A DNA stretch of 11,392 nt from positions 1-11,392 of the forward strand of contig JBHGNT010001160.1 of assembly GCA_043228905.1 (NCBI GenBank), written 5' to 3'. A program made the position numbers and the translations under genes. Below, in pieces: positions 3-10,801 of the stretch (positions are counted from its first letter, which is position 1; the number at the start of each line of letters is the position of its first letter). The notes beneath the pieces were generated by a model. It was not told where the DNA came from. It saw only the letters and a list, made by a program, of their open reading frames with translations, and made no database searches. Source of the DNA: Azolla caroliniana. Its lineage: Eukaryota > Plantae > Polypodiophyta.

Positions 3-1883
3 AACGCCCTTTCAGTGCATGATGTGCAATGTTTTCTCAGGTTTGCAAATTTTTATCGAAAATTTATTAAAGATTATTCCAAGGTTGTGCTTCCGCTTAC
101 TCAGCTCACACATAAAGATGAACCATTTATATGGAGTTCAGATGCAACCGAGGCATTTGAAAGCTTAAAACGAGCATTTACAACGGCACCTATCTTAGCA
201 CATGTCGACCCAACAAAACGCTTCATCCTCGAAGCCGATGCATCCGATTTTGCACTAGGGAGTGTCCTCTCGCAGACTGGAGATGATGGACAACTACACC
301 CTGTCGCCTTTCATTCACGAAAGTTTGAAGCTGCAGAGATCAACTACGAGATCCATGACAAAGAGCTTCTTGCAATCGTGGATTCGTTTCAACAATGGCG
401 ACATTTCCTAGAAGGTTCTTCTCAGCAGATCATTGTCTACAATGATCATAAGCACCTGACTTGTTTCCAAAATGCTCGAGTCTTGAGTCGGCGACAAGCC
501 TGGTGGGCGCAATTTTTCACTCACTTTGACTTTATCATCATATATCGCCCTGGGATGCAGCAAGGCAAAGCAGATGCTCTTTCTCAACGCTCTTATATGG
601 AACTTCGTCCAGGGGAACCTGCATTTGAGCATAAAAAACAAATCCTTTTGGGTCCGAATCGATTACAATTAATGGTAGTTAACGCCATAACAACTCTTGA
701 AAATTCCACTCTTCTTGATTCCATTCGAGATCATATGGCCACTGATGAGTTCGCCAAGGATTTTTTGGATCATATCGTCCCGAATCGTGCTTCTTGCAGT
801 TTCAAAAGGTTTTGGTGCAATTCTCACAGTGGTTGATCGATTTACCAAAATGGCACATTTCTTGCCATGTACCAAGTCGATTACTAGTCAAGAGGCGGTT
901 GATCTCGTTATGCGGGAGGTATTTAAGCATCATGGTCTACCGAATGATATTATTAGTGATCGTGGTCCACAATTCATCTCAAAGTTTTGGAAGCACCTGT
1001 TCAAACTTCTCCACATTTCAGTTAAGCTTTCTTCGGGCTATCATCCTGAAACAAATGGCCAAACAGAGCGTACCAACAAGACATTGGAACAATATCTTCG
1101 TTGTTTCATCAACTATCAACAAGATGATTGGGTTGATTTTTTGCACTTGGCGGAATTCGCTTACAACAACTCAGCCCATTCTTCTACAGGATATTCCCCA
1201 TTTTTCGCAAATACGGGTTGTCATCCTCGGTGGACGATGAATGCGCATCCAGAAGTTCCTACCAACCCTGCTGCCGAGGATCGTCTTAGTCGCCTCCAAG
1301 AAATTCAAGCTAACATTCTCCACAATTTGCACGATGCTCAATTTACACACAAGAGGCTTGCCGATCGTCATCGTCTAGACTCCTTAAAAAAGTTCCGCAT
1401 TGGGGATCATGTATGGCTTCTCCAACACAACATCAAGACCACTCGACCTTGCAGTAAATTGGATTACCAACGTTTTGGCCCTTACATGATCACTGGTAAG
1501 ATAAGTGATGTTGCATTTCGTCTTGACCTCCCTCCGCACATGCATCTTCATCCGGTGTGTCATGTATCCCTTTTGGAACCTTATACTACAAGTTCAATTC
1601 CATGCCGTCTTACGACACCCCCACCACCTGTCGAGTTCTTGGACGGGCCTGAATTTGAAGTTGCTGTCGTTCTCGATTCTAAAATCGTGCGCAACAAGTT
1701 TACTTAGTCGATTGGCTAGGCTATACTCCCAATGATCGAACTTGGGAACTTGGCTAGGCAAATCTTTCCAATGCTGCAGAACTCGTCCATGCATTTCATC
1801 GCCAATATCCTTGTAAACCAGGTCCTAATACAAACCCTACGACCCGTGAGACGGGTCGTCAAAGAAGGGGGATAGTGTCATGA
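3..1883 (+). pseudogene. pol: pol remnant: RT C-terminus/RNase H, integrase core, GPY/F motif, chromodomain; internal deletion and frameshifts
   Basis: ORF 15-836 has FANFYRKFI, EADASDFALGSVL, NYEIHDKELLAIV and YRPG..QGKADALS. ORF 697-1707 has VVDRFTKMAHF, SDRGPQF, YHPETNGQTER and RFGPY. The chromodomain starts EFEVAVVLDSK and continues after a frameshift (~1700) as YLVDWLGYTPNDRTWE..*..NLSNAAELVHAFH, ending at TGA 1881-1883 inside the LTR. Confidence 0.93.
1861..1875 (+). other. Polypurine tract (PPT) of element D
   Basis: AAAGAAGGGGGATAG lies immediately before the TGTCA LTR start. Confidence 0.88.
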
Positions 1884-1930
1884 TAACACTCACATCATGC
1901 ATCGAAAGGATCATGACACTCACATTATGA

Positions 1931-1999
1931 CTCGAAAGGATTTGAACCCACGACCTTGTTGTACACATGTCAAATCCTTAACCATTGTATTAATATTCT
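1931..1999 (-). promoter_or_regulatory. Degenerate tRNA-like Pol III type-2 promoter module in U3 of LTR D
   Basis: The minus strand reads TAATACAATGGTTAAGG (A-box-like, 1982-1992) ... AGGTCGTGGGTTCAAATCC (variable loop plus B box, 1938-1948) with tRNA-like spacing. Stems are poorly paired. Confidence 0.6.
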
Positions 2000-2011
2000 T
2001 ATATGTATAGT

Positions 2012-2181
2012 CTCTAGAATATGAAATCTAATATCATAGGAATATTCTATATTACTCTACATTCTAGAATGACCTAGAATATTCTAGAGTGTTCTATACC
2101 ACTAGAACCTTCTAGAATACTCTAGAGATCTTCTAGATTACTCTACATTCTAGGATAACCTAGAATATTCTAGAGTGTTCT
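2012..2181. promoter_or_regulatory. Array of heat-shock-element-like motifs, including a 45-bp direct repeat
   Basis: TTCTAGAA and GAATATTC cores recur. A perfect nGAAnnTTCnnGAAn (AGAACCTTCTAGAAT) is at 2104-2118. The direct repeat is 2051-2095 vs 2137-2181 (43/45). Confidence 0.7.
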
Positions 2182-2346
2182 CTATTAATTATAAATAGGG
2201 ATCTACCACCCATCCCAAACCTAAATTGGTTCAACGCCACTTTGTAGCCTACTCTTTGTAATCCATTTTACGCTTCAATATAATAATTCTCTTTCAATTA
2301 TCTTTCTATCTCTTTTTCTCTCTTTTTCTCTCTCTCAGTCTTGACA

Positions 2347-2738
2347 CAGACAACACTCGGCTGAAGGTGTTGATGTGGGAGGTGGCTGGATCGGTTTCTC
2401 TCATCTTCAGGTTGAACAGTTGTCCGATCAATATCAATTTCGAAGATGCGGACTTCTTTTCGTACATAGCCTGCAGTTTCTCCCATTACGAGAATGTTGT
2501 CGTCCTTGGCCATATTGAAGTAGAAGTTTTCAACTAGATGCATTCGGATGATGGAGTGCGAGATTTCGTCCATGGATCTCCACTCCTCGACTGTCATCGA
2601 AGAAGGTTTTTCACTGTGTCGAATGGCTTTGAACCGTCTTCTAATGATCAACACATCCTGCATCATCTCCTTCCACAAGGCAAAGTTTTTTCCATTGAGC
2701 TTTCGGATTTCAACTCTTGTACCGAATGTTGAAGCCAT
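2347..2738 (-). pseudogene. gag: Copia gag N-terminus (DUF4219/UBN2-type), frameshifted and truncated by element D
   Basis: MASTFGTRVEIRKLNGKNFALWKEMMQDVL...MAKD continues after a frameshift (~2500) as TTFS*WEKLQAMYEKKSASSKLILIGQLFNLKMRETDPATSHINTFSRVLS, stopping at the LTR D boundary. Confidence 0.9.
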
Positions 2739-2822
2739 GTTCTTTTTGAAAGTGAGATTTTTACTAACCTTGTATTTTCTTTCAACTTTCTTTGCTGTTT
2801 TGTTGCCGTTGAACAACAAGTC

Positions 2823-2834
2823 ACTTTGATACCA
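2823..2834 (-). other. Primer binding site (tRNA-iMet) of Copia element B
   Basis: Minus-strand TGGTATCAAAGT matches canonical TGGTATCAGAGC at 10/12 and lies 2 nt from the LTR terminal CA. Confidence 0.85.
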
Positions 2835-3081
2835 ATTGAAGGATATGGCATTCGATATGTATGTGGAAGTATGTGAGGACCAGTAGGTTATGTCAACAAC
2901 AAGTCACCACAAAGAATATGACAGAAGAGATAGATGAAATGTAGACACAGTTCGAAGCTCTAATGGAAGCTCTCGTTATTCTGTAACTCTTACACTCATA
3001 GAGGCTCAAGATACAAGAGAAAAGGTATCTGTTACAATGTTAGGGTTGAGCTTATATACTAAAGCCCTAGCTCAAGGACGC

Positions 3082-3930
3082 CGCCGTGAGGATTTTCGGC
3101 AATGGTAAGAAAACCGAGTGGAGCGAATAAAACGAGGATGTGCAACGTTGCACATGCACTTAGGGAATATGTAAATAAGAATAAGAAAACAAATGTAAAG
3201 GGAAAGGTGGAATGTAAGGTGCTAAAGTACACCACAAAGTTCATGAAACGTAAATGTGATGAGCACTTAGGTGCACATGCAAATGTAGAAAAGCGGAGTG
3301 CATGGAAGTAAGAGTGTAATAAGTAGTAGGCATGGTGATGTGTGTGTGAAAATGAGAGGACAAGGAGTTAAGGCCCCATCAATCTCTCCTCCTAATATCA
3401 AGGCAAATATTCCCCTTTGAAAAGAGTGGAATATTTGGCCTCTCTTTTGGTAATAAGCTCACCCTTCTTCCACTATAAAACGGGGTGAGGAGTCACCATT
3501 GAAAGGGTCACAATTTTGTCGTTAGAGGTAGGCCTATTAAGGTTTTCTTCTTCATCTTATCCCTATTTTGTTTTAGGATTTTGGTTTTAAGTTCCCTTTC
3601 ATATCGTTTTCCTTTCTCTCGATTGGGGTTTAGGTCTTCTTCCTATTCGGTTAGGTTTTCTTGTTGTGCTTGAGTTTGGCCTATATGGCCGCGGTTGTAA
3701 TCATATTGTGGCTTGTCTTTATCTAGCTCTTTATCTTTCTAATCTTTGCACATTGTTTGATGAACCTTGTCTCGATCTAGCTCTTTATCTTTCTAATATT
3801 CGCACATTGTTCCTCCTCTTTTGTGCTCGGAGGCTCGATTAAGCTCCCATTTTCCCCCTTCTTTTACTCCCTAGTCCAATACCCTCGTGATCCTGCCCAA
3901 GTCGACATGCACGCGCAGATTTCCGCGACA
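3082..3930 (+). mobile_element. Element C: solo LTR (849 bp) related at its termini to LTR F
   Basis: Start CGCCGTGAGGATTTTCGGCAAT matches F start TGTCGTGAAGATTTTCGGCAAT (19/22). End GATTTCCGCGACA resembles F end GATCTTCACGACA. It is flanked by ACGC at 3078-3081 and 3931-3934, and has TATAAAA at 3474-3480. Confidence 0.8.
3712..3811 (+). repeat. Two 46-bp direct repeats (period 54) inside LTR C
   Basis: CTTGTCTTTATCTAGCTCTTTATCTTTCTAATCTTTGCACATTGTT at 3712-3757 has a near-identical copy at 3766-3811. Confidence 0.9.
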
Positions 3931-4026
3931 ACGCGTTTACACTTGGGATACAAAGTGGAAGGAGTCGACCTTTTATGCCAACAAGTTGAACTCTTTCCCG
4001 CTCATAAGCTCCCAAGTCCAGTGTCA

Positions 4027-4568
4027 ACTGTGGCTGATCTTATGGACTACGACGTAAAAGCAAGTTAATCCATCAATGACTTTGTTAATAAAATGTCCTC
4101 GATCACTAATTAGCTCAATCGGATAGCCATATCGACACCATATGTACTCATAGAGAAACTTTGTTGTTGACACCGCCGAATTAACCCATAGTGCATTCGC
4201 CTTGACCCATTTGGTGCAATAATATGTGGTCACTAGGATATAGCGATTTTTAGTTCGTACCGTTGTTGGCTTGAAAAGCCCGACAAAATCTATTCCCCAT
4301 TTTTGAAATCGCTCCAATGGTAATATCGGCTGATGTGGCATCCTTCCCTGTTCCATGGGTTGGCCCATCCACTGGTATTGGTCAATATTCTTGAGAGGTT
4401 GTTGGCACAAGGTGGTTAGCCACCATAGTTCGTTGCACCAAATTTTCCGTGCCGTTGCGTCTCCTACAAAGTGGCCGACGGCTACTCCACAATGAGACTC
4501 TCGTAACACTACAACTTTCTCGTCACTTTGGATTGCCTTTCACCAAATTTTGTCGGTTCCTTTGTGGT
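4027..4568 (-). pseudogene. pol: Integrase N-terminal half (damaged HHCC finger, core with first two catalytic Asp)
   Basis: HKGTDKIW*KAIQSDEKVVVLRESHCGVAVGHF, FQKWGIDFVG, TKWVKA and ELISDRGHF are present. It is cut after VVHKIS by element B. Confidence 0.9.
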
Positions 4569-4896
4569 TCAATTAAAGTTTCATAAAGTTTTTTAATGAT
4601 TTAATTAATTTGACTTAAATATTTATTTAATTTAATGGTTCAATTAAAGTTTCTTTTATCGATTTAATAAATTTAACTTAATGCTTATTTAATTTAATGT
4701 ATTTTTGTATATTTAAATATTTAATTAATTTGACTTAAATGGTTAGGTTTAAATTATTTATTAAATGGATTGGTTTGGTTTCAACTTTTCCCTAAACGCT
4801 TTGGTTCGGTTTGGTTTCGTTTTTGTTTTATATAAACGATTTGGTTTCTTTGCCTTGAAACCGAACCGAACCAAAACCGAACTGTGCTCATTGATA
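4569..4896. mobile_element. Element E: AT-rich non-autonomous DNA-transposon-like fragment (hAT/MITE- or Helitron-like), left end missing
   Basis: An abrupt AT-rich non-coding block interrupts pol. It has about three degenerate 60-70 bp tandem units (TGGTTCAATTAAAGTTTC at 4565 and 4636) and GGTTC/AACCG arrays forming an 18/19-bp inverted repeat (4800-4818 vs 4857-4875). Confidence 0.6.
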
Positions 4897-6500
4897 GTGG
4901 TAGTCTTGTACTCAGAAAATGCATCATCTCGAGTATCCAAGGGTCCTCTGGTTACTCCTTTGGATTGGTTGGGTCCGCCGCCTTGACACTAAACAACAGT
5001 CCGTCCAGAAAATCATCCCGGACACCGTCTCCTTCGTCGGATTCCAGCTAGCTCAAGTATTCTGTGACCGCGTGCTGCACCCCGGGTCGATGGTAGATGT
5101 AGAGTTCAAATTCTTGTAGCAGGAGAGTTCACCGGGCCAATTTTTGGTTAGCAAGGTGTTTGACACCAAGTATAGTAGTGCCAAATGGTCTACATGAAAC
5201 AAAAATTTCTGGCCCAGTAAGTAGTGTCGAAACTTATTCACACTATAAACCTCCCCAAGGCCTCCCTTTTCATGGTTTAATAATTCTGTTTGTCTTTTGA
5301 TAACTTCCGAGTCACGTAGTACACCAGCCGGTACCAATTTGGCCCTGTGAGCTGCATCAGGGCACTCCCAATTACTACGTATGATGTGTCCACAAACACA
5401 TGGAAATCTTTGGACCAATCCGGGGCTTGGACGATCGGAGCCTATGACAACATAACTTGTAATGCCCTGTATGCTTTGTCTTCCACGCCCATCCATTGAA
5501 ATGGTACTTGGTGTACTACGACATGTAACAACATTGCAAAGTTCACCAGATATTAGTATTTGGATATGCGACTGGATCTGACCTAAAAATTAGCTTAGTG
5601 CTTTGGCATTCGTTGGGTTTTGTGCCCCCAAGATAGCCCTTAAGTACCTTTTCCGGATTGACTGTGATTCCCTCCTTGCTCACAGTATGCCCTAGTAACA
5701 CGCCACTTCTGACTTTGAATGCACATTTGGTTGGATTCAAACTTAGTCGCAAAATTCAACATTTCTCTAGACACCTCCGAAGATGGCCCAAGTGTTCGGC
5801 TTTCCAGCTATACACTGCAAAATCATGAAGGAAAACTAGCATGAATGTCGAAATATAATCGCCAAAAATCTCCATAGTGATTCGCTGAAATGTTGGTGGT
5901 GTTGTCTTTGATCCGAACATCATGACTACTACAACAAACATTCCCCATTCTGTGACGAATGCCATTTTTCTTGATCAGTCGGATGCATTCTAATCTGGTT
6001 GTAACCCTGAATCCATCCAAAAAGTTGTAAACCTCATGGTCGACTATTGGATTGAGTACTTCGTCTATAAAAGGCAGCGGAAAGGCATTTGTAACCATCG
6101 CTGTGTTGAGCTTCCGATAATCCACACAAACCTTAATTTTCCCGTTCTTCTTGGGTACTCCTACTATTAGACTCAACCACGTAGCTTGCTTTACCGGTTG
6201 TAGAAATCCGACCGTTAACAATTTTTTGATTTCCTCTTTCATTTTTGCAGCTTTGTTGGGGTTCATCTAGTATCGCCTTTGGGCTATCGGTTTTGCGTCC
6301 TTACTTTGGTGAATTTGATGTTGGTAGAATTTCAGGTCTAATCCCTTCATGTCCTTGTACGACTAGGCAAAAACATCCTTGAATTCCTTCAATGGTGCTA
6401 CCATCTCCAATTTTTCTTCTGGACGCAAATCCATTGCCATGCTTATTGATTGTGGTTCTTTGATCATTCCCAAGCTGACCTCTTCCAATGTTTTTTTTCC
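4897..6500 (-). pseudogene. pol: Reverse transcriptase and RNase H remnant
   Basis: Motifs include VPKKNGKIKVCVDYRKLN, FPLPFID, FLDGF, MMFGSKT, FLHDFAVY (catalytic FLDD mutated), LNPTKCAF, KFRHYLLG..F.FHVDH and HRPGVQHAV.EYLS. There are multiple frameshifts. Confidence 0.93.
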
Positions 6501-6744
6501 ATTTAGAGATACTACTTTAGTTTTTTTTTTTTTTATCTTTGGCTCGCCCGAAGGCTACAACTCACACAAAGTCATGTTTTATTAGTAGTATATAGTCCAT
6601 CAAGGGGTGTACCGAATGGTACGAGTGAGATACATGCACAGGATGACCTCTAGGAGATATAATGAGACTCGCACCACGTTCCATCATGCAACTTGTAGAC
6701 AGGCTACATTTTACCTTCTTCATCGTCGAAACTGTCATTGTTGT

Positions 6745-6947
6745 CACCGTCACCATCTTCGTCGTCGTCACTTACGGACACAAACCGCCCTTCACCGTCA
6801 CCATCTGCGTCGTCGTCACTTACGGGCACAAACCGCCCTTCACCGTCACCATCTGCGTCGTCGCCACTATCTTCGTCGTCATCACTTATGGGCACAAACC
6901 GCCCTTCATCGTCACCATCTGTGTCGTCGTCACTTACGGTCACAACC
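6745..6947 (-). repeat. In-frame 48-bp minisatellite encoding an Asp/Gly-rich repeat in the PR-RT linker
   Basis: Units start at 6745, 6793, 6841 (48+18 bp) and 6907 (partial). The minus frame gives (DGEGRFVPVSDDDADG)n. Confidence 0.92.
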
Positions 6948-7199
6948 TCTTCCAGTGTTGACGCCTTTACTTTCTAGGATATAGCTAATTCTTTTTCCAA
7001 TGCGTCATGCGCTTGGCGAAGCTCCCAAATAACTTCTACGTCCAGTTGAGCTAGATTCTCCTCTATGACTTTGTCGGTTACATATGGAATTACGGCTTCT
7101 GCCACATCAATCTCAAACAATGACACTATTTGTGGGTTCTCCTCCAGGTATTGATCCACTTCCTCATCCACCAATCCGTCTAGCATATGGACGGTGTCA

Positions 7200-7700
7200 A
7201 CTACTTTGTAATGGTCACGCTCTCCTGTGTCGGCATTCGAACTTTTGTTTTCCCCCGATGGAAACTAATAATGTTCTTTTGCCAAATTTGTTTAATATGG
7301 GTCGTCTTCAACCACGGTTGTCCTAATAGCAAGGGGTATGCCCCTGCTGTGTTCAACTTTAGTACCACCGCGGATATCTGGAATGGATGTCCGCCCATGG
7401 CTATTTCAAGATTCCGGATTAGCCCCGTTGGCCAGTCTGAAGTTGATTCCACCATTCACAACCAGAATGGGCATGGTTCCCATTCTTGGATGCCTAATCT
7501 TTAACAGGTACTTCATTGATTACATTTACACCAAAGCTACCATCAATTATTGTTCCAAGTATTTCGACGCCTTTAATAATTACTTTTACTATCGAATTCT
7601 GGTCATCAATTATTGTCAGTCCTTTATTCTGGTGTGTAACGTGTACCGGAGCCTCTGACAACGTGTTCCCCCTCTGTACTATTGTTAGAGTTTCCACAAA
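7200..7700 (-). pseudogene. pol: Retroviral-type aspartic protease remnant
   Basis: GTIIDGSFGVNVI (active-site region), PTGLIRNLEIAMGG and AYPLLLGQPWL. Confidence 0.85.
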
Positions 7701-7879
7701 TCAAGGAACAAGTTTCAAGAGTCCAGCCAATGGCATTGAAATTTGACAACTTGCTAGTGCTAGCCAAGCTGGATCCTCTGTAAGTGGTTCTTCTTTTGTT
7801 GTTGGTTTTTCTTCCAGGGACTACTTGTTTAATTCTTGGAGTATTTTTTCTACATTCCGCTAATTCACTTTCTCCACCC

Positions 7880-9520
7880 ATTGTTATGTTGTCTTTGGTA
7901 CAACTTCCTGGGCCTCCCATTCTACGGTGGTGACTTGTTGTCCTTCAGCCACCTCTATGGTCAGCATATTAATTGCCGCCATTTGGCCTTTTCCTTTTAA
8001 TGGACATTGCCTGCTATAATGCCCTTCTTGTCGGCAAAAGTCTTTATTACAATTATCTTTCTTAGAGCTTCCTGGGCCTCCCATTCTGCGGCGGTGACTT
8101 GTTGTACTTCAGACACCTCTATGGTCAACATATTAATTGCCGACACTTGGCCTTTTCCTTTTAATGGACATTGCATGTTGTAATGGCCTTCAGGTCAGCA
8201 GAAGTAACAATATAGTTTACACGGTTCGCTTGTTTCTACCTTATTTGTTACTACAGGTTGTGTTCTGGAGCCTAGCCGTGCTGATTCCTCTAGCCTCTAA
8301 GGTTTTGTTGGAATGGTTTGGCCTTTTGTGACTTTCTTCTATCCTCCGAAGCTCTTCAATAGTCATGTGAGGAGTATCGACGTTCATTTTGCCGATTGTC
8401 GGTACCATACCTTGGATCATAATTATGGCATTGGTCATCGTACACTTGCCGATCTATGTATCTTCATTCTATTTGCCTCTCTCGATCATAATAAGGGGAA
8501 TAATCTCTATCATATTGTCCTCTTCGGTAGTCCTCCGTTCTATAGCTTCATGTATATCGAGGTCGATCCTCCAGTCAATATCTGTCGTCCCATCAAAACC
8601 ATTCATCCGACCAGAATTGGTCCTTGTCCGTCCTCTGTTCAATTTGTCGTACCGATGCCGCTGGTGGATTGAGAAGGTTATATTCGCACATGTCGATTGT
8701 GTGGGCCCACGAATGGCACAAGGCATAGTGCATTCTCATTGTGCATTCCAAAGTCGAGTGGCCAGGGTTTAGGCATGTTGTGCACTACACCGCTTGCCGG
8801 AATCTGAGTTCCTCTTCCTTTGGTAGCACCTTTTGTAGAGCCTCCATTGACATGCTATTAACATTATGCGCTCTATCCATATCGAGCACTTTATCAATGA
8901 CTTGGTCAATGGTATTTGTGGTGAAGTCCAATACTGCCAATGTTGTTCGAAGTGGCCCTCTGAGCGCAGTTAAACATGTTTCCTCTAAGTCCGCCTCCGG
9001 TGGTGTCTTGGTTAACTGTTTCCGCAAGTTCTGTAACCCAATGATAAACTATGACACTGTTTCTTGTGCCTCTGGGTATGCCACATAAAACTGGCGCATT
9101 AATTCTCTTTGCGCCACTTGTCAGTGGAATAGCCGGATGAACTTGTCACTTAGTTGCATGAATGTTGAGAATTCCTCCGGATTATGCTGGGAATACCAGC
9201 TCGCCGCTTGCCCTTCCAAGGAAAGCCCGAATTCTGCTATCTTTGATGCATCAACAATGGCTTCTGCTAGTCCTTGGGACACATGGTTTGCTTGTCATGT
9301 GGTCAGAAATGCTTGAACATGGGCTTCTGTGTCCGGCTTGTCATTGTACTTCGGGTAGGGGTATGTCATATTGTCTTCCTCCTCGTTTATCCGGAAAATT
9401 TCCATCTCCTGATTCGAATTCTCTGACTCCGCTTTCTCATCAATTACTGTAGCTGGATCCTTATCCAATGTTAGTACTAGGAACTCTTCCTCCTTGCTCA
9501 CCGCTTTTACCCATGACGAT
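7880..9520 (-). pseudogene. gag: gag remnant with up to four CCHC zinc knuckles
   Basis: YPYPKYNDKPDTEAHVQAFLTT (capsid-like start), CTTCLNPGHSTLEC and YALCHSWAHTIDMC (~8685-8785), CYFC*PEGHYNMQC (~8170-8212) and DFCRQEGHYSRQC (~8005-8045). The start codon was not identified. Confidence 0.82.
7904..8205. repeat. 138-bp direct duplication of a zinc-knuckle module
   Basis: 7904-8041 vs 8068-8205, about 15 mismatches by hand count, period 164. Confidence 0.92.
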
Positions 9521-9583
9521 GGTGTCAGGCTTTCTTTTTTAGGAAATAGGTCCCTCCGGATGGGAAGTGAGAACAATAGTGTC

Positions 9584-9663
9584 GATGTGGTGTACCCGGC
9601 AACGGAAGACCCGATGAGAACCGGATGTGGGGTACCCGGCAACGGAAGACCCGGTGAGAACCG
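9584..9663. repeat. 40-bp tandem repeat x2 in the leader/LTR edge of element A
   Basis: GATGTGGTGTACCCGGCAACGGAAGACCCGATGAGAACCG and a copy at 9624 (38/40). It is cut by LTR F. Confidence 0.9.
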
Positions 9664-10041
9664 GTGTCGTGAAGATTTTCGGCAATAGTGTGAAAATCCC
9701 ATAAAACGTACAAAATCGAGTATGAATCACATAATACAATAATTGTGAAGATAACATTTTAAATAAATTTAAGTACAAAATGATGGAGGTTTCAAATGCA
9801 CTTTATTACACGAGAAACAGACAACTAAATGTCAAGATATGAGGGTATAAAGTTTGTGAAAGGAAAAGAGAAAATTGTGAGATATCCCACATAGGCACGA
9901 CAAATATGGTTCTCATCATATATAAGGTAGAGCAAAAGATATTATCTTTGTGTCTATGTGTGGAGCATAGAGAGTTCAAGGTAACTTGAACTAAGAGTGG
10001 AGGTGGGCTAGCTACTCGTAAAGGGTTTTGGCCAACCAAAA

Positions 10042-10200
10042 CCGGACCGGTGATGGAGCTGGAGACACCGGCGTCCGGCGGCAATCCGGCGATGGCGAGG
10101 CACCAGTAACCGATGGCATCCGGTAACCAACGGCAACCGGCGACGGCATCCGACGAGGCACCGGTAACCGACGACATCCGACGAACCGGTGTCCGGCGAC
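10042..10200. repeat. GC-rich CCGG-dense degenerate repeat island in LTR F
   Basis: About ten CCGG sites. A 27-bp direct repeat sits at 10096-10122 vs 10154-10180. The boundary with the AT tract at 10201 is sharp. Confidence 0.8.
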
Positions 10201-10240
10201 TAGATAAATAAATATATAAATATATATACATATAGAAGGA

Positions 10241-10311
10241 GGACAAGTAAGGATTCGAACCTTGCACCTCCAAGTTAGGAGTCAATTGGCTTACCATTAA
10301 GCCATGCCATT
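10241..10311 (-). ncRNA. tRNA-derived (Arg-CCT-like) pseudo-tRNA / Pol III module in U3 of LTR F
   Basis: The minus strand reads TGGCTTAATGGTAAGC (A box; D-stem GCTT/AAGC), loop CTCCTAA, variable AGGTG, and T-arm CAAGG-TTCGAAT-CCTTA (B box GGTTCGAATCC, 10251-10261). Acceptor and anticodon stems are degenerate, so it is not a functional tRNA. Confidence 0.72.
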
Positions 10312-10783
10312 TAGTTGAATTTATATTTCTATCATTGTACTTTTACGTGTAAATTCTCATACATGAGAGCTAAAATGAGTGACATGGTTATCATGCACCA
10401 CATGTAATACATAAGCGCCAAATGGCAAGCATGCATTTTATGCATGTCTTATACCCTCACATGCATCATATGCATGAGAGGATCTATAAAAGAAGGAAGG
10501 GGGAGGAGAAAAAAGACGTTTTTTTTGGGTTATGAAATTAAGAAGAAGAAATTTGTTATCAAATTGATCGTGTAACTTGTTTCTTAAATCTAAAGATAAA
10601 AAGTTCAATCAATCTCTCTCAATCGTTTAATCTCAACTTCTCTCTTTCCCAATCTATCTTAAGTACTTTCTCGCTAAAGCTTGCGCCAAAGCTTGTACCG
10701 ACTTTGAATCCTTCCGGTCCAGAACCCCGGCGGTTCCGCCTCACGATCCGCGCGTAGTGACGGATCTTCACGACATAATTAAG

Positions 10784-10801
10784 TGGTGAACCCGACGTGA
10801 A
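10784..10801 (+). other. Primer binding site complementary to tRNA-Trp 3' end
   Basis: TGGTGAACCCGACGTGAA is the reverse complement of the plant tRNA-Trp 3' end as I recall it (TTCACGTCGGGTTCACCA). Confidence 0.85.

Follow-up and report, generated by a model that had tools for sequence, protein, structure and literature searches.

Promoters of small RNAs in long terminal repeats (LTRs) are known from miniature non-coding elements, which use them to transcribe themselves. The closest described case is the Helenus/TRIMp3 group, which includes one plant family (Selaginella) and the LTRs of which contain tRNA-derived sequence with conservation centred on boxes A and B and with no working tRNA (Kojima 2024, PMC10886601). 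According to the available text of that study, Helenus elements are TRIMs without coding capacity, 311-1263 bp long and equipped with a tRNA primer site, and in three LTRs of its supplement the tRNA sequence has the sense orientation and could promote transcription of the element itself. The same text reports a screen of elements below 1000 bp only, argues that autonomous partners must use Pol II, and remarks on partial tRNA similarity in 'not a few LTRs' of Repbase. Cases similar to the one described here may sit undescribed in that collection.

The Cassandra and Ajax TRIMs have likewise captured an internal Pol III promoter in the LTR and kept it for long, but the accessible accounts describe it as a promoter of the 5S rRNA type that lies in sense and transcribes non-autonomous elements (PMC10886601, PMC12786077). 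The Pol III miRNA cassettes of foamy viruses are A/B-box units too, and sit in the LTR of a retroelement that is autonomous and driven by Pol II; as presented in the accessible text, they have terminators and hairpin products (PMC3993851), whereas neither is conserved in the present case and the module is visibly a tRNA remnant. The Tcn1 clade of chromoviruses has been described from mosses and lycophytes (PMC6317226, PMC2864245). Its members PpatensLTR/RLG1 and SM-Tcn1 resemble our element in domain order, chromodomain, self-priming and LTRs of 440-470 bp, but the available parts of their descriptions mention TATA and CAAT boxes and no tRNA-like LTR module (PMC2864245, PMC6317226, PMC7466625).

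The window, by which we mean the whole stretch of 11,392 nucleotides that was analysed, consists of nested plant retrotransposons. One of them carries a backward module with A and B boxes in its LTR, a real feature of its lineage, and what is new relative to the miniature elements is that the module is backward and belongs to a protein-coding lineage. The A and B boxes in the LTR are shared with Helenus; the short non-coding body, the sense module and the tRNA primer site are not (the primer was tested in locus L007). Instead, the lineage codes for gag and pol, shows a TATA motif for Pol II, appears to prime itself, and holds the module antisense in the window and at the related loci L007, L008 and L028. 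In the literature covered, to which Repbase reports and most subscription papers do not belong, we found no description of autonomous plant (moss, Tcn1) LTRs in which a backward tRNA module is conserved.

The chromovirus and its backward module

The 3' part of a Ty3/gypsy pol occupies positions 3..1875 of the plus strand, with Pfam matches to RNase H, the integrase core and an SH3-like domain, and with a chromodomain. This copy is broken by frame changes near 830 and 1700 and by a stop within the chromodomain, which is readable in two frames; its closest intact relative, P0001, is 90% identical over 188 aa and carries PF00385. A polypurine tract (PPT; 1861..1875, plus strand), found at the matching place in L007-L013, leads into a 3' LTR of 471 bp (1876..2346, plus strand) that runs from TG to CA, is of the Tcn1 chromovirus type and aligns end to end with the LTR of L007. 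The LTR has a TATA motif at 2190 and a CT-rich 3' part. Between the module and the TATA motif lies an array of TCTAGA-rich palindromic repeats (2030-2185), also seen in L007 and L008, which may offer sites for Pol II factors. The LTR end is abutted by the 5' part of a Copia-like element (2345-3050, minus strand) with a primer-site-like motif near 2821-2832 and a gag-like frame at 2298-2903.

Self-priming was read from two relatives, the 5' LTR of the window copy lying outside the window. In L007, the 12 nt that follow the LTR can pair with a site located 32 nt past the TATA motif, and L009 has a match of 11 nt in a like arrangement. Together with the chromodomain, this fits an assignment of the window element and its sisters to the Tcn1 clade, the tree itself containing no named Tcn1 reference. 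Given that this clade is described from mosses and lycophytes, the host is probably a non-seed plant.

The tRNA-derived module (1931..1999, minus strand) is located in U3, antisense to the element. It extends from tRNA position +1, at 1999, to about position 69, with stems decayed and boxes kept. Read from 1999 to 1931, the minus strand follows an exact tRNA register with T8, A14, A15, G18, G19, A21 and a variable loop of five bases. The A box (T8 to G19, 1992-1982) matches seven of eight consensus positions, G10 being lost. The B box (G52 to C62, 1938..1948) matches all nine scored positions in the order G52-G53-T54-T55-C56-A57-A58-N-T60-C61; it is an A57 variant free of CpG. Its sequence, GGTTCAAATCC (minus strand, 1948-1938), is a strict B box, one of two in the whole window on both strands. 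The adjoining variable-loop and T-stem bases (1949..1956, minus strand) are common to the sister families too. G19 and G53 are 35 nt apart, within the 34-37 nt found across five modules. The antisense boxes with tRNA spacing that a preliminary description had reported are thus borne out, as is their placement some 60 bp from the 5' end of the LTR (64 bp from C61 of the B box to the LTR start). A perfect 10-bp inverted repeat (1936-1945/1970-1979), not obviously retained in L007 or L028, would pair the B box with sequence immediately 3' of the A box.

On a score of 17 box positions the module reaches 16, a value attained by one of 3000 dinucleotide shuffles of the LTR; this figure is optimistic, given that the score was built from consensus boxes after the site had been seen. 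Across 838,013 bases of 176 loci found by their integrase, 11 sites score 16, three of which are related modules.

Contigs from all four DNA runs (n=823, 502, 741 and 448) cover the module at the same depth as the rest of the LTR, and consequently the module is not a private insertion. A single-copy SINE insertion at 1931-1999 was rejected on this ground and on the presence of the module in sister families. Among the contig variants listed (40 of 48 and 40 of 45 rows), none falls on the 17 box positions, where a hand count gave an expectation of only about 1.3.

The LTR start contains a tandem duplication with a 30-bp period (1880..1941, plus strand; family D15), the arms of which (1886-1911 and 1916-1941) are identical at 23 of 26 positions. 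It copies the tRNA 3' tail and not the whole B box. The preliminary description was right about the duplication and wrong in having the module merely abut it, since the last bases of the B box are overlapped. The duplication is not present in L007, L008 or L028, and in each of the four DNA runs 12-15 contigs lack it, an LTR start being joined straight to 1913; consequently, we do not regard it as part of the module design.

The module is no longer a tRNA gene. ARAGORN found no tRNA genes in the window, and the Rfam tRNA model RF00005 gave no match at E<=10, either with the window or with the segment 1900-2010. The covariance-model check that had been proposed for the module also came out negative when four modules were scanned one by one at the same threshold. 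Watson-Crick pairs are formed at 6/20 stem positions in each of three families, that of the window included, and the folding z value of the window module is -0.4 to -0.6. A functional tRNA gene was rejected on the ARAGORN, RF00005 and stem-pair results. Note that the lack of an RF00005 match indicates that the cloverleaf is gone; it does not follow that the boxes are there by chance. Searches with blastn against phage records returned only matches with E of 0.6-8 for all modules queried; among the best 15 rows for each query, annotated tRNAs accounted for three with the window module, 11 with a second module of the window (see below) and none with that of L007. An exact 20-nt search of viral contigs yielded six matches, all of them unrelated T-arm-like or chance sequence. 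The idea that the LTR terminus represents the CCA end of a tRNA was rejected as well, the LTR starting 17-64 bp past C61.

The boxes in sister families

Relatives were sought in metagenome, genome and viral contigs with an alignment of the integrase and not of the boxes. Of the 176 loci recovered, 123 were readable, i.e., covered the end of the chromodomain and 130 nt or more beyond it. Box scores among them were 16 in two (L007 and L028), 15 in one and 14 in 15. The search of viral contigs gave no close relatives and 17 distant loci. In both L007 and L028 the module occupies the matching place of the LTR on the minus strand, scores 16/17, and lies 37 bp and 17 bp, respectively, from the LTR start. 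The frames of L007 are open (gag 389 aa, pol 1235 aa).

A quick tree of 54 rows placed these two as the sole loci in the 26-row clade of the window (SH-aLRT 97), the other 23 rows being proteins without DNA. The window, L007 and L028 fall on both sides of the first split of this clade. Outside the clade, L008 has a degenerate antisense module at the corresponding place (13/17 in strict register) and is probably a further family carrying it, its score of 14 being equalled by 14 other loci. The test of presence in sister LTRs was therefore passed by L007 and L028 and probably by L008. The related Tcn1-type loci L009-L013 and L017 have no module, and these families spread nonetheless. The module is consequently dispensable, as is also indicated by a solo LTR of the window (3082-3930) that lacks the second module.

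The columns identical in the window, L007 and L028 are concentrated in the boxes (12/17, vs. 15/47 of the other columns; Fisher p 0.007). Exclusion of three anchor columns did not abolish the difference (9/14 box columns identical, p 0.03). Between the window and L007, identity is 14/17 in the boxes, 6/19 in the outer flanks of the module and 32/91 at four-fold codon sites of an integrase that is 69% identical. The preliminary description held that boxes no better conserved than flanking LTR sequence would undermine its case; they are better conserved than the flanks of the module. Furthermore, variation of the B box among families is confined to the degenerate positions 57, 59 and 60, with the exception of C56T in the low-coverage copy of L028. 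On these three sequences, the boxes are likely under selection.

How firmly this can be held depends on the neutral rate. The whole LTR is 66% identical between the window and L007 (292/441 positions), and at this rate the retention of the boxes in L007 and L028 has p 0.15; at rates of 40-60% it has p 0.0008-0.07. The lack of significance at whole-LTR identity is in line with an inherited relic, in which a single ancestral insertion of a tRNA or SINE head into U3 is passed on without any Pol III role, its apparent conservation arising from a generally constrained LTR, from an alignment anchored on the boxes or from overlapping Pol II sites. The degenerate module of L008, the missing module of its sister L009, the loss of C56 in L028 and the lack of reads over the module point the same way. 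However, boxes at 16/17 in three families stand against four-fold sites near saturation (35%) and outer flanks at 32%, and the result survives removal of the anchor columns. A second lineage, whose module differs in sequence but stands about as far from the TATA motif, also argues against the relic, which we consider unlikely on balance.

Recurrence of backward modules

The second backward tRNA-derived module (10240..10311, minus strand) has 17/17 box positions, a strict B box at 10251-10261 and CCT at the position of the anticodon loop; one copy is known. The U3 that holds it belongs to a Gypsy LTR (9665-10775) not related to that of the chromovirus. This is the 5' LTR of a second Gypsy element; it has inverted ends, is preceded by CCGG, and is followed by a primer site for a tRNA (10784-10800) and by gag from 10834. 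The NCGN-type target of this element resembles that of the Phygy group as outlined in the accessible text of PMC6317226. The two modules of the window have 20/47 non-box positions in common. The best matches of the second module are phage tRNA-Arg genes, which are weak (E 0.6-8), and phage tRNA-Gln and tRNA-Trp are also among its best 15 rows. Read by hand, its 3' end agrees at 6/14 positions with the tRNA implied by the primer site, and consequently it is not a copy of the primer. An AT-rich stretch of simple repeats that follows the module could be a SINE tail.

The solo LTR at 3082-3930, flanked by a 4-bp target duplication (ACGC), aligns with the LTR at 9665-10775 at a score of 95.5, where none of 30 shuffles exceeded 13, and is thus a relative of it. 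The minus strand also carries a decayed Gypsy gag-pol (4024-9726) with a DNA-transposon-like AT-rich insert near 4560-4890 and tandem repeats of 48/66 bp at 6744-6934.

The position of the modules relative to the Pol II promoter is similar across lineages. The tRNA +1 is upstream of the sense TATA motif by 191, 162, 173 and 174 bp in four LTRs, including the unrelated LTR at 9665-10775, the TATA boxes being assigned from the motif alone; in L007 a further TATAAA stands 5 bp from the module.

Backward A/B modules are also seen outside LTRs. In L007, two of them (about 1000-1075 and 6325-6400, minus strand; scores 16 and 15) lie within the pol frame, in the linker between protease and reverse transcriptase. 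They occupy the same place in both pol copies, although these are only about 53% identical there. The linker extension that holds them occurs also in P0021, and L007 and P0021 have longer linkers than P0019 and P0004. At L034, a tRNA-like sequence (10520-10600, minus strand; 16/17) about 2.5 kb downstream of the integrase of a distant element is possibly a real tRNA gene beside the insertion.

What the module may do

The module could matter through a transcript, through pairing of the genomic RNA, or as DNA. As the preliminary description had it, the first T4 on the minus strand is at 1681-1684, 319 nt from +1 through the run. The antisense RNA of about 315 nt over the PPT and chromodomain that it derived from this site is unsupported, the distance to the first T4 being 319, 1091, 119 and 135 nt in four families. 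Two poly(A) runs with another organism label, sampled at about 12-13% of each, gave five and two reads and none over the module, where poly(A) selection misses most Pol III RNA. One contig of an RNA library, without strand information, spans 1921-2234. Given the varying T4 position, the missing fold and the lack of reads on the module, it is improbable that selection has acted on a defined antisense RNA.

These data bear on the proposal that Pol III transcribes actively from the module and that the resulting antisense RNA keeps copy number down or enters small-RNA pathways. Started in a 3' LTR, such an RNA would run over the PPT and chromodomain; started in a 5' LTR, over flanking host DNA. 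The A box has been retained along with the B box, suggesting initiation and not TFIIIC binding alone; the upstream flank of the module is AT-rich; and Pol III cassettes do occur in foamy virus LTRs, as the accessible text of PMC3993851 describes. Set against this are the scattered T4 distances, the absence of a conserved fold and the 0 of 5 + 2 poly(A) reads over the module, the last a weak test. We regard this proposal as quite improbable.

A role at the RNA level would have the sense genomic RNA pair with the D and T arms of a host tRNA behind the PPT, as in Ty3, and so aid dimerisation, packaging or strand transfer. In the bipartite primer-binding site of Ty3, tRNA-complementary blocks in U3 of the genomic RNA bind the T and D arms of the primer tRNA, as far as the available text describes it (PMC5371799). 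The conserved blocks of our module are those of the T and D arms, including variable-loop bases, and G-U pairs could tolerate the differences at 57, 59 and 60. Ty3, however, is tRNA-primed and its blocks match the primer, whereas the lineage of the window appears self-primed (12 nt in L007, 11 nt in L009), in agreement with the self-priming predicted for Tcn1 elements in the accessible part of PMC6317226. The second module, in a tRNA-primed element, matches its implied primer at only 6/14 positions. A role of this kind is likewise quite improbable in our assessment.

The reading that we prefer, with a probability of about 0.45, is that the module is a decayed outward tRNA gene which serves as a DNA-level pad for TFIIIC, perhaps also for TFIIIB and Pol III, and would act as a boundary that keeps the Pol II promoter of the LTR open. 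The tRNA register, the outward orientation, the U3 position and the loss of stems are found in three families of one clade. A DNA-level pad is preferred because the boxes persist without stems, because the orientation is backward and outward, and because the distance to the Pol II promoter is steady. Note however that TFIIIC binding alone would not demand the inner non-box positions of the module that are partly kept (18/28 between the window and L007), which counts against the pad.

In the proposed sequence of events, an ancestor would have captured a tRNA gene or the head of a tRNA-type SINE backwards in U3, and LTR copying would have fixed the captured module in both LTRs. TFIIIC would bind the B box, as work in yeast and mouse suggests, and TFIIIB would occupy the AT-rich sequence that separates the module from the TATA motif, which is 162-191 bp away. 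In the 5' LTR the complex would face the host flank, where it could stop both the spread of heterochromatin and read-through, and it could phase nucleosomes over the LTR promoter; any antisense RNA would be a by-product. A barrier would be useful to the element because its chromodomain integrase is thought to aim at heterochromatin.

Precedents for the pad come from host loci and SINEs. Barrier, insulator, roadblock and nucleosome-phasing effects are reported for TFIIIC sites in yeast, and repression of neighbouring Pol II promoters by Pol III complexes is described as well, according to the accessible text of PMC4228148. Mobile SINE boundaries are also known (PMC8136502, available in part). 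The tDNA and ETC (extra-TFIIIC) boundaries of yeast and the B2 SINE boundaries of mouse resemble the proposed pad in that effects of Pol III factors beside Pol II promoters are independent of the product, but among those treated in the accessible text of these sources none is a fixed part of an LTR retrotransposon promoter (PMC4228148, PMC8136502). Mouse B2 boundaries are tied to CTCF in the part of the source available (PMC8136502). For the moss chromodomain element RLG1, targeting of heterochromatin has been proposed (PMC7466625, available in part). CTCF itself is not known from plants.

A wider reading, possible and offered tentatively, is that autonomous LTR retrotransposons of non-seed plants repeatedly captured backward tRNA promoters as portable chromatin barriers, placing TFIIIC/Pol III about one nucleosome upstream of TATA, so that an element seeking heterochromatin could still be transcribed at its insertion site. 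The two unrelated Gypsy lineages of the window and the capture within pol of L007 would then be independent cases. A backward module in a full-size Pol II element cannot transcribe that element, which suggests that transposons put the Pol III machinery to some other use. If it acts as a barrier, it would offer a testable answer to the question of how chromodomain elements that insert in silent chromatin get transcribed, and thousands of LTRs would scatter TFIIIC sites across such genomes.
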